64,000 nt of DNA, from contig JAZQVN010000039.1 of NCBI GenBank assembly GCA_045631885.1, forward strand, positions 12,608 to 76,607. The letters run 5' to 3'. The first letter of the stretch is position 1; every line of letters begins with the position of its first letter. The notes beneath the pieces are model-generated. The model was not told the origin of the DNA. It ran no database searches and saw only the letters and a list, made by a program, of their open reading frames with translations. Shown here piece after piece: positions 58,098 through 59,012 of the stretch. A program made the position numbers and the translations under genes. Source of the stretch: Bacilli bacterium (GTDB lineage: Bacteria; Bacillota_I; Bacilli_A; RFN20; CAG-826).

Positions 58098-58691
58098 TTA
58101 TTTTTCTCCCATGAAGAATGGATATCTTAGATTTTTAAGCTGTTCTTTAACCGCTTCTAAAGTAATTGGCTTAAGCATAAAACCACAAGCACCAGTCTTC
58201 CAAGCATCAAGAGAATAACCACTATAAGCAGTTAAGAAAACAATGTTAGTGCGTGGATTGATTTCTAAAAGAATTTTACATAAATCAAACCCACTCATGT
58301 TTCTTATTTCGATATCTAAAAAGGCAAGAGCAACGTTGTTCTTTTTTGCGTATTCAATCGCTTCCTCTGTATCAGAAAAGCCAGTCACTGTCGCGTTAGG
58401 GATCGCTTCTTCTAAAACTTTGATACCACCAGAAAGAACCGCTTTTCGATCATCGACGATAATAACGTTTGGACATTCATCGCTTTGAGCGGCAGCGGAT
58501 AGCAAAAAGTTAACATCAACACCTAACATTTCTGAAAGACGTTTGATCATCATTGCATCAGGAAGACGAGTTCCGCTTTCCCATCTTGCAATTGTGGGTC
58601 TAGTGACATACATCTTATTAGCTAATGCTTGTTGAGATAGCCCTTTTTCAGTTCTTAATTTCTTTAATGCTTTAGAAAATGTTTGACTCAT
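58098..58691 (-). CDS. Atypical response regulator: an N-terminal XRE HTH fused to a C-terminal receiver domain.
   Basis: The HTH is LRTEKGLSQQALANKMYVTRPTIARWESG. The receiver is VIIVDDRKAV...ALAFLDIEIRNMSGFDLCK...IVFLTAYS. The track start is TTG (complement of 58701-58703); ATG (complement of 58689-58691) with a GGTGA RBS is more likely. Confidence 0.7.
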   Translation of the reverse strand: MSQTFSKALKKLRTEKGLSQQALANKMYVTRPTIARWESGTRLPDAMMIKRLSEMLGVDVNFLLSAAAQSDECPNVIIVDDRKAVLSGGIKVLEEAIPNATVTGFSDTEEAIEYAKKNNVALAFLDIEIRNMSGFDLCKILLEINPRTNIVFLTAYSGYSLDAWKTGACGFMLKPITLEAVKEQLKNLRYPFFMGEK

Positions 58692-58762
58692 TAATATCAC
58701 CAAATGATTTTTATATTTCTTTTTCCATTATAAACAAATAAGACATCTAATTCTTTAAAAAA

Positions 58763-58779
58763 CGTTCCATTCTGGAACA
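58763..58779. promoter_or_regulatory. CGTTCCATTCTGGAACA palindromic element, copy 1.
   Basis: It is an inverted repeat GTTCC-attct-GGAAC. An identical 17-mer recurs at 58886-58902. Confidence 0.5.
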
Positions 58780-58885
58780 TTTTAATATTTATCAAAAATA
58801 CCACGAGAAGTGATTTTATAGCAATTTCATACAATTGCTGTGAGATCTTTTTTATATATTTGACATATAAAAGATAATAAAAACC

Positions 58886-58902
58886 CGTTCCATTCTGGAA
58901 CA
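58886..58902. promoter_or_regulatory. CGTTCCATTCTGGAACA palindromic element, copy 2.
   Basis: It is 17/17 identical to copy 1. Both lie in the divergent intergenic region between the TCS and the membrane/PrsW/surface operon. Confidence 0.5.
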
Positions 58903-59012
58903 CCTTATTAAAAATAAACAAATAAAAAAATACAATGAAAATGACTTAATAGGTAAATAATGCAATTTTTGAATAAACAAACAAATCAAAAATAACGAGG
59001 AGGTAAAGTAAA

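Follow-up and report, generated by a model that had tools for sequence, protein, structure and literature searches.

A predicted two-component system with an XRE-first response regulator and a candidate palindromic operator in a Bacilli bacterium

Results

We analyzed a two-component system encoded in a 64,000-nucleotide stretch of a Bacilli bacterium genome (contig JAZQVN010000039.1, positions 12,608 to 76,607; GenBank assembly GCA_045631885.1), referred to here as the window. A response regulator gene and a histidine kinase gene lie on its minus strand and diverge from an operon for a membrane protein, a PrsW-type protease and two surface proteins. The region between the two operons carries two identical palindromes. 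As judged from sequence comparison, these are very probably operators of the regulator, serving the regulator-kinase operon as well as the divergent membrane/PrsW/surface-protein operon. The features concerned are the following.

56817 to 58094, minus strand: cognate histidine kinase, 425 amino acids; assigned from Pfam matches, hydrophobicity and adjacency to the regulator
58098 to 58691, minus strand: response regulator gene, 197 amino acids; assigned from Pfam matches, alignments to CheY and the 434 repressor, conservation and an AlphaFold2 model
58727 to 58732, minus strand: -10 hexamer TATAAT of the predicted regulator-kinase promoter; read from the sequence, with a weak -35 (AAGAAT)
58763 to 58779, no strand: candidate operator copy 1 (core 58764 to 58778), 24.8 bits; homologous on its regulator side to the one site found in relatives
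58886 to 58902, no strand: candidate operator copy 2 (core 58887 to 58901), 22.7 bits; geometry of the family's canonical outward promoter
58908 to 58936, plus strand: predicted divergent-operon promoter TTAAAA-17-TACAAT; promoter reading, with the same layout in the nearest related locus, L001 (TTAATA-17-TACAAT)

Residue numbers of the regulator follow the translation of 58098-58688, the initiator methionine not being counted. Pfam identified an HTH_3 helix-turn-helix (HTH) domain (PF01381) spanning residues 8-61 (E 3.6e-15; score 56.2 bits, cutoff 23) and a Response_reg receiver domain (PF00072) spanning residues 75-184 (E 4.7e-18; score 65.8 bits, cutoff 30.2), the latter match covering positions 1-110 of the 111 in the model. 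A short and conserved linker (QSDECPN) leads from the HTH to the receiver, and the protein ends 12 residues past the receiver with no further domain found by Pfam. The N-terminal XRE HTH and C-terminal receiver described in the initial annotation were thus recovered in this order. That annotation had named the lack of a conserved phospho-acceptor aspartate as a finding that would speak against its proposal. The residue is present: alignment with CheY places D125 at D57, T153 at T87 and K173 at K109, the acidic pair being D79/D80, and D79, D80, D125, T153, K173 and P174 are invariant across homologues (sets of 12 and 48). The HTH shares 34% identity with the N-domain of the 434 repressor. An AlphaFold2 model of the regulator (predicted local distance difference test score, pLDDT, 89; predicted template modeling score, pTM, 0.67) is confident within each domain and consists of a five-helix HTH (2-14, 19-26, 30-38, 45-55 and 59-67) and a (beta-alpha)5 receiver. 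We assigned the start codon to the ATG at 58691-58689 and not to the TTG at 58703, because homologues open with MSQTF or MNQTF and an identical database protein (P0001) has 197 residues. Measured from this ATG, the divergent intergenic region is 321 bp long instead of the 309 bp obtained with the TTG.

Placing the output domain first reverses the canonical order of response regulators, as had been pointed out before, but it is normal for XRE-family factors, where an N-terminal HTH followed by a C-terminal regulatory or dimerization domain is the usual arrangement. The protein reads best as a Cro/434-type factor that uses a phosphorylatable receiver as its dimerization domain. No NCBIfam model covering the whole regulator was found, and searches of the PDB by sequence and by fold (Foldseek) returned no entry spanning both domains. 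Full-text literature searches for XRE-receiver and HTH-REC bacterial regulators yielded no characterized member with the HTH-first order. They led only to DigR of Myxococcus xanthus (kinase SgmT), a response regulator with an HTH_Xre output domain (PMC3509222), and to the archaeal proteins LtrR (HTH-REC) and FilR1 (winged HTH-DUF1724-REC), in which the output comes first and the receiver last (PMC5847659).

The same N-terminal XRE module had been proposed to recur elsewhere in the window. The protein encoded at 1318-2022 (minus strand) joins an XRE HTH to a C-terminal multi-pass membrane domain and represents a membrane-tethered XRE factor. At 8943-10583 (plus strand), an N-terminal XRE HTH (HTH_3) precedes a complete four-domain PGM/PMM (GlmM-like) enzyme of the phosphoglucosamine/phosphoglucomutase type, an unusual case of an enzyme for cell-wall precursors carrying a DNA-binding domain. 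The HTH fusions therefore exist, but their HTH domains are only 31% (1318-2022) and 29% (8943-10583) identical to that of the regulator. Such values indicate common membership in the huge HTH_3 family and provide no evidence for lineage-specific reuse of one module.

The kinase gene starts 3 nt past the regulator stop codon. Its product has about six to seven predicted transmembrane helices or hydrophobic segments within residues 1-225, followed by His_kinase (PF06580, E 1.9e-16) and HATPase_c (PF02518, E 7.5e-9) domains. For residues 1-235 there was no Pfam match at E ≤ 0.01 and hence none to a 5TMR-LYT or GAF sensor. The earlier designation LytS-like is appropriate for the catalytic core but not for the sensor half. 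A Fic/DOC-family gene (55845-56741, plus strand) lies beyond the 3' end of the kinase gene in convergent orientation; the N-terminus of its product resembles a small HTH, and a link to the two-component system is not evident.

The 17-mer CGTTCCATTCTGGAACA occurs in two identical copies at 58763-58779 and 58886-58902, exactly as previously annotated. Its core is a perfect 6-3-6 palindrome, GTTCCA-N3-TGGAAC, which contains the inverted repeat GTTCC-N5-GGAAC reported initially and describes the site better. The center of copy 1 precedes the regulator ATG by 80 bp and the regulator TATAAT (58727-58732) by about 38.5 nt, at about -50 relative to the predicted regulator promoter. Copy 2 has its center 119 bp ahead of the start of the membrane-protein gene and 37 nt ahead of the plus-strand -10 (about -49). 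The predicted transcription starts fall at about 58943 (plus strand) and about 58720 (minus strand). When up to three mismatches are allowed, the 64-kb window contains three matches to the 17-mer compared with 0.13 expected from shuffles. The third match (6030-6046) includes a perfect GTTCCA-N3-TGGAAC at 6031-6045 inside an ornithine carbamoyltransferase gene (Pfam) and scores as high as the two intergenic sites; a weight-matrix scan of the window gave high scores only at these three positions. The 17-mer is thus not a common dispersed repeat, a possibility raised along with the initial annotation, since its one extra match in 64 kb falls in a coding motif. We considered the carbamoyltransferase palindrome as a regulon member and rejected it. 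It reads GTT CCA ACA TGG AAC, encoding V-P-T-W-N, and is probably a codon coincidence, because no promoter-like sequence with the appropriate geometry lies beside it.

Relatives of the system were collected at the protein and at the locus level. A protein search of rumen metagenomes retrieved 6742 proteins at E ≤ 0.001, the best 120 of which all have the same two-domain architecture. Among representatives at 50% identity, 77 proteins matched at E ≤ 1e-30, with full-length matches (about 200 amino acids) extending down to about 31% identity. Viral contigs contained no relatives and plasmids no close relatives. A scan of one genome per species yielded 80 loci (cited by number where needed), almost all from rumen or gut metagenome-assembled genomes (MAGs). 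Their submitters' labels include Erysipelotrichaceae (also given to the nearest locus, L001), Ruminococcus, Lachnospiraceae, Oscillospiraceae and others. Host GC content ranges from 34 to 65% with the regulator still 64-76% identical, and from this range we conclude that the hosts are truly diverse. A PF06580-type kinase gene follows the regulator gene in 80 of 80 loci, which bears out the pairing with a His_kinase/HATPase sensor noted at the outset. Across these loci the catalytic half of the kinase averages about 73% identity and the membrane half about 35%. Either the signals differ among hosts or constraint on the sensor is loose.

The palindrome is conserved together with the regulator-kinase pair. 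In the 79 loci scored for an upstream site, the palindrome or a variant was present in 67. Forty of these sites are symmetric, while 20 have the asymmetric form GTTCCA-N3-TGTCAC and seven the form GTTNCC-N5-GGNAAC at the same position. In 30 loci, a perfect GTTCCA-N3-TGGAAC precedes the regulator start by 77-175 bp, and tolerating one mismatch raises this number to 39. In loci where a GGDEF gene stands ahead of the regulator on the same strand and in the same operon, the site is found upstream of the GGDEF gene. A half-site weight matrix detected 80 sites scoring 13 bits or more across roughly 750 kb compared with about 1-4 in shuffled sequence. The arms of the site are invariant and show no compensatory changes, while the 3-nt spacer varies freely. 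The asymmetric form does not yield a hairpin (-1 kcal/mol, z +0.6). Taken with the lack of compensatory changes, this indicates that sequence and not structure is conserved.

The position of the site relative to promoters is likewise fixed, and alignment of the upstream regions on the site revealed a bidirectional promoter that is conserved. On the outward side, the site is followed by a C-rich gap of 5-6 nt and then by TTGAnA-17-TAAAAT, with the site center 36.5 nt before the outward -10 (about -48.5) in 31 of 51 loci. On the regulator side, an A-rich tract leads to TTGTTT-17/18-TATAAT, and the center lies 51.5 nt before the regulator -10 (about -63.5) in 18 loci. Sequence conservation ends directly past the outward -10, irrespective of the gene that follows. 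The same site-to-(-35) layout is repeated at more than 15 additional sites before other genes, always with the TGGAAC half beside the -35, and it was observed for 42 of 78 sites compared with 1% of random positions. In the window, site 2 shows the canonical geometry toward the divergent operon, and the TTTGTTTATAAT block at the regulator promoter is conserved in L001, L081-L086 and most loci. Second sites several kb from the regulator were seen at L027:11675 and L054:8002, where they lie between divergent promoters (about -48.5 and about -63.5) and look like a bidirectional control region copied without the regulator genes.

Site class and recognition helix co-vary. An ungapped alignment places regulator residues 30, 31 and 35 at Q28, Q29 and Q33 of the 434 repressor, which are base-contacting residues in its operator complex. 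The regulator of the window has R30 and A34. Loci with GTTNCC-N5-GGNAAC have K or N at residue 30 in six of seven cases and S at residue 34 in all seven, whereas R30 is present in 60 of 60 loci with the other two site classes and S34 in only 2 of 60. Because of the phylogenetic footprint, the fixed promoter geometry and this protein-DNA covariation, we read the palindromes as predicted operators. This supports the initial annotation, which had considered them likely operators for the two-component system and the membrane/PrsW/surface-protein operon.

The two sites of the window are separated by an additional element:

58780 to 58885, plus strand: 106-bp strain-specific insert with a terminator-like hairpin and T-run at 58805-58860; absent in the closest relatives

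The hairpin has a fold energy of -18.5 kcal/mol (z -5.7) and was flagged by a terminator scan. The nearest relatives with a single site are L081-L084, with regulators 89-92% identical to that of the window, L001 and L085/L086. Their membrane-protein-side flank matches the flank of site 2 and their regulator-side flank that of site 1. It follows that the window carries a 123-bp addition, composed of the 106-bp insert and a second 17-mer. The perfect identity of the two 17-mers reflects this recent insertion or duplication and not selection for two sites, and paired sites are not the design of the family, relatives using one shared site. The effect of the insertion is that each promoter gains its own candidate operator with a terminator-like element between them. 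No other copy of the 106-bp insert was found in the window or in the 80 loci, and its hairpin core was absent from JGI metagenomes. A miniature mobile element was considered and rejected. The insert is flanked by a direct duplication (the identical 17-mers), but no further copies turned up in the sequences searched and it has no clear terminal inverted repeats, its ends being only weakly complementary by eye and in AT-rich sequence.

The divergent operon consists of the following genes.

59013 to 59678, plus strand: 221-residue membrane protein, first divergent gene, with seven hydrophobic segments; 13-nt overlap with the next gene
59666 to 60355, plus strand: PrsW-family intramembrane protease; Pfam PF13367, E 2.9e-19, and synteny
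60373 to 61794, plus strand: surface protein with Listeria-Bacteroides repeat (Flg_new); signal peptide-like N-terminus and C-terminal transmembrane anchor
61816 to 63399, plus strand: surface protein with polymorphic-membrane-protein (PMP) repeats; N-terminal signal-like segment and C-terminal transmembrane anchor

No Pfam or NCBIfam family was found for the membrane protein, and a comparison with the sensor half of the kinase gave no meaningful similarity. Its gene is divergent from the regulator in L001, L018, L022, L035, L039, L058, L070, L076 and L081-L086, and a hidden Markov model built from nine orthologues detected no further members among the loci. Both surface-protein genes (60373-61794 and 61816-63399) are conserved in L001, L085 and L086. 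We surveyed the surroundings of the loci by Pfam scans of about 40 neighboring genes. In a subset of loci, the membrane-protein/PrsW pair diverges from the regulator and is usually followed by large surface proteins. Partners elsewhere include ABC exporter gene pairs (about 15 loci) and giant Big_2, MBG, Ricin or LRR surface proteins, further GGDEF/EAL enzymes, SpoIIE phosphatases, CstA, MatE, PAP2, DUF308 and sortase. The neighboring genes have an envelope, surface and export bias but belong to no single pathway.

Some single MAGs contain two paralogous cassettes of the regulator-kinase pair with its promoter region, namely RUG14275 (L013 and L016), RUG641 (L058 and L076) and ruminal_MAG_77 (L029 and L062). 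In ruminal_MAG_77, one cassette has a symmetric and the other an asymmetric operator, a hint that the paralogues may be insulated from each other. The gene at L064:5611-8165, from a MAG with the label Oscillospiraceae, lies downstream of an operator-like site and encodes an 851-residue protein in which Pfam found a ubiquitin domain of eukaryotic type (PF00240, E 1.8e-20).

Discussion

We estimate a probability of roughly 70% that the locus encodes a complete two-component module of an uncharacterized regulator family, that GTTCCA-N3-TGGAAC is its operator and that the regulator activates both operons. In the mechanism we propose, the kinase would phosphorylate the regulator at D125, and this would drive dimerization of the receivers, setting two HTHs on the two half-sites. 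The dimer bound just upstream of the -35 would then activate transcription both ways. In one direction this would concern the regulator-kinase operon, resulting in positive autoregulation, and in the other the divergent operon for the membrane protein, the PrsW-type protease and the two anchored surface proteins. The ancestral design would be one operator common to two back-to-back promoters, from which the 123-bp insertion or duplication would have led to the arrangement of this strain, with one operator for each promoter and the terminator-like hairpin in between.

Parts of this design are found in known systems. DigR likewise combines a receiver with an XRE-type HTH and binds a palindrome, presumably as a dimer; phosphate is transferred to it by its partner kinase, and secreted and matrix proteins are prominent in its regulon (PMC3509222). 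However, its receiver is N-terminal (D53) and its HTH C-terminal, the reverse of the order seen here (PMC3509222). The DigR site TAATC-N14-GATTA occurs at variable promoter positions, whereas the present site is a 6-3-6 palindrome at a fixed position, and the DigR kinase is a cytoplasmic hybrid GAF/GGDEF protein encoded by an orphan gene (PMC3509222), whereas the present system has a membrane PF06580 kinase encoded in the same operon. In having a PF06580 plus HATPase_c kinase core, the system is similar to LytS/LytR and BtsS/BtsR (YehU/YehT), and the best partial matches of the receiver are the BtsR and LytR receivers, which fits a PF06580 kinase. Unlike these systems, it has an N-terminal HTH_3 instead of a LytTR output and no match to a 5TMR-LYT/GAF sensor, and it is therefore not a LytS/LytTR system. 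LytTR regulators typically bind direct repeats and not a 6-3-6 palindrome.

The domain order is the same as in LtrR, FilR1 and the alphaproteobacterial PhyR, but output folds (winged HTH or sigma-like) and lineages differ. PhyR was the only PDB entry aligned by Foldseek over both halves, and with a root-mean-square deviation of 11-13 A it does not have the same architecture. PhyR functions as an anti-anti-sigma factor without binding DNA, unlike the predicted DNA-binding regulator described here. Like the 434 and lambda repressors, XRE-cupin proteins and PlcR/Rgg/ComR, the regulator has an N-terminal five-helix HTH_3 and a candidate palindromic operator of 15-17 bp, and its C-terminal domain, as in one-component XRE factors, presumably controls dimerization. 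Several one-component XRE factors activate from sites abutting the -35. What distinguishes the present regulator from them is a kinase-fed, phosphorylatable receiver in place of a ligand- or peptide-binding or RecA-cleavable domain.

A number of points weigh against our interpretation. We infer binding, its dependence on phosphorylation and the sign of regulation from sequence data. Outward promoters with good -35 and -10 hexamers may need no activator, and a site abutting the -35 could also repress. By the patterns used, 12 of 79 loci have no upstream site, although several of these have one downstream of the kinase, before the next gene. The covariation between site class and helix residues comes from few independent lineages (at least two sequence backgrounds within the seven loci), and its counts are given without phylogenetic correction. 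The taxon labels of the MAGs were given by the submitters and are possibly unreliable, and the case for host diversity is carried by the GC spread. Further, conservation is poor in the sensor half of the kinase, and the neighboring genes are too heterogeneous for a single physiological role to emerge.

The alternative that survives best, although we consider it unlikely, retains the protein and its sites but makes the regulator a repressor. In this case, the site beside the -35 would hinder RNA polymerase (alpha C-terminal domain or sigma region 4), and phosphorylation would either strengthen or relieve the effect. Many XRE-family factors are repressors. The outward hexamers are near-consensus (TTGAnA-17-TAAAAT) and could be constitutive, and DigR is able to both activate and repress (PMC3509222). 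However, the site keeps a fixed upstream position and does not overlap the -35, the spacer or the -10 at any of about 50 promoters, and activation is favored over repression because no site overlaps a core promoter element. The regulator promoter of the window has a poor -35 (AAGAAT), as would be expected of an activator-dependent promoter. PlcR, Rgg and ComR are N-terminal XRE-HTH activators that act on palindromes just upstream of the -35.

It is far less probable that the palindromes are bound by another transcription factor or are functionless remnants, the two copies representing a target-site-like duplication around the 106-bp insertion. The second copy does stem from an insertion or duplication absent in relatives, but the single ancestral site is kept beside the regulator-kinase pair over a GC range of 34-65% and whatever the neighbors are. 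The co-variation of site class with residues of the regulator's own recognition helix and the absence of dispersed copies also argue against this alternative. To our knowledge, the palindrome is unlike the Firmicute motifs of the LexA Cheo box, cre, Rex and CodY. Finally, we rejected as highly improbable that the 17-mers are RNA or DNA hairpins acting as small intrinsic terminators or attenuators: although the terminator scan flags both (stem of 6-7 bp, 3-nt loop and T-rich tail; -7 and -8.9 kcal/mol, z -3.2 and -2.1), the stems are weak, the flanking genes diverge from the region so that there is nothing upstream to terminate, the sites lie upstream of predicted promoters, and the arms are conserved without compensatory changes, with 20 loci having the asymmetric form that cannot fold.

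Returning to the activator interpretation, the system would be a portable cassette in rumen bacteria, made up of an outward promoter, the operator, the regulator promoter, the regulator and the kinase, and placed beside varied genes. These neighbors often encode envelope or surface proteins, exporters or enzymes of cyclic di-GMP metabolism. Our tentative suggestion, which we hold to be somewhat doubtful, is that the cassette is self-contained and spreads horizontally among distant rumen bacteria, that it would bring the adjacent gene under the same membrane signal, and that paralogues might be insulated from each other by diverged operator/helix pairs.

Conclusion

Response regulators are classed by their output domain, and it is from families with the receiver at the N-terminus that the rules by which phosphorylation governs DNA binding have been derived. 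In the family described here, a Cro/434-type HTH precedes the receiver, which presumably assumes the dimerization role of the phage-repressor C-terminal domain. The family is present in at least 80 species-level genomes and is abundant in rumen metagenomes. As a predicted operator, a promoter geometry and candidate specificity residues are all available from comparison, it lends itself readily to experimental study. The operator could further aid regulon prediction for surface and adhesion-type proteins of uncultured rumen Firmicutes.

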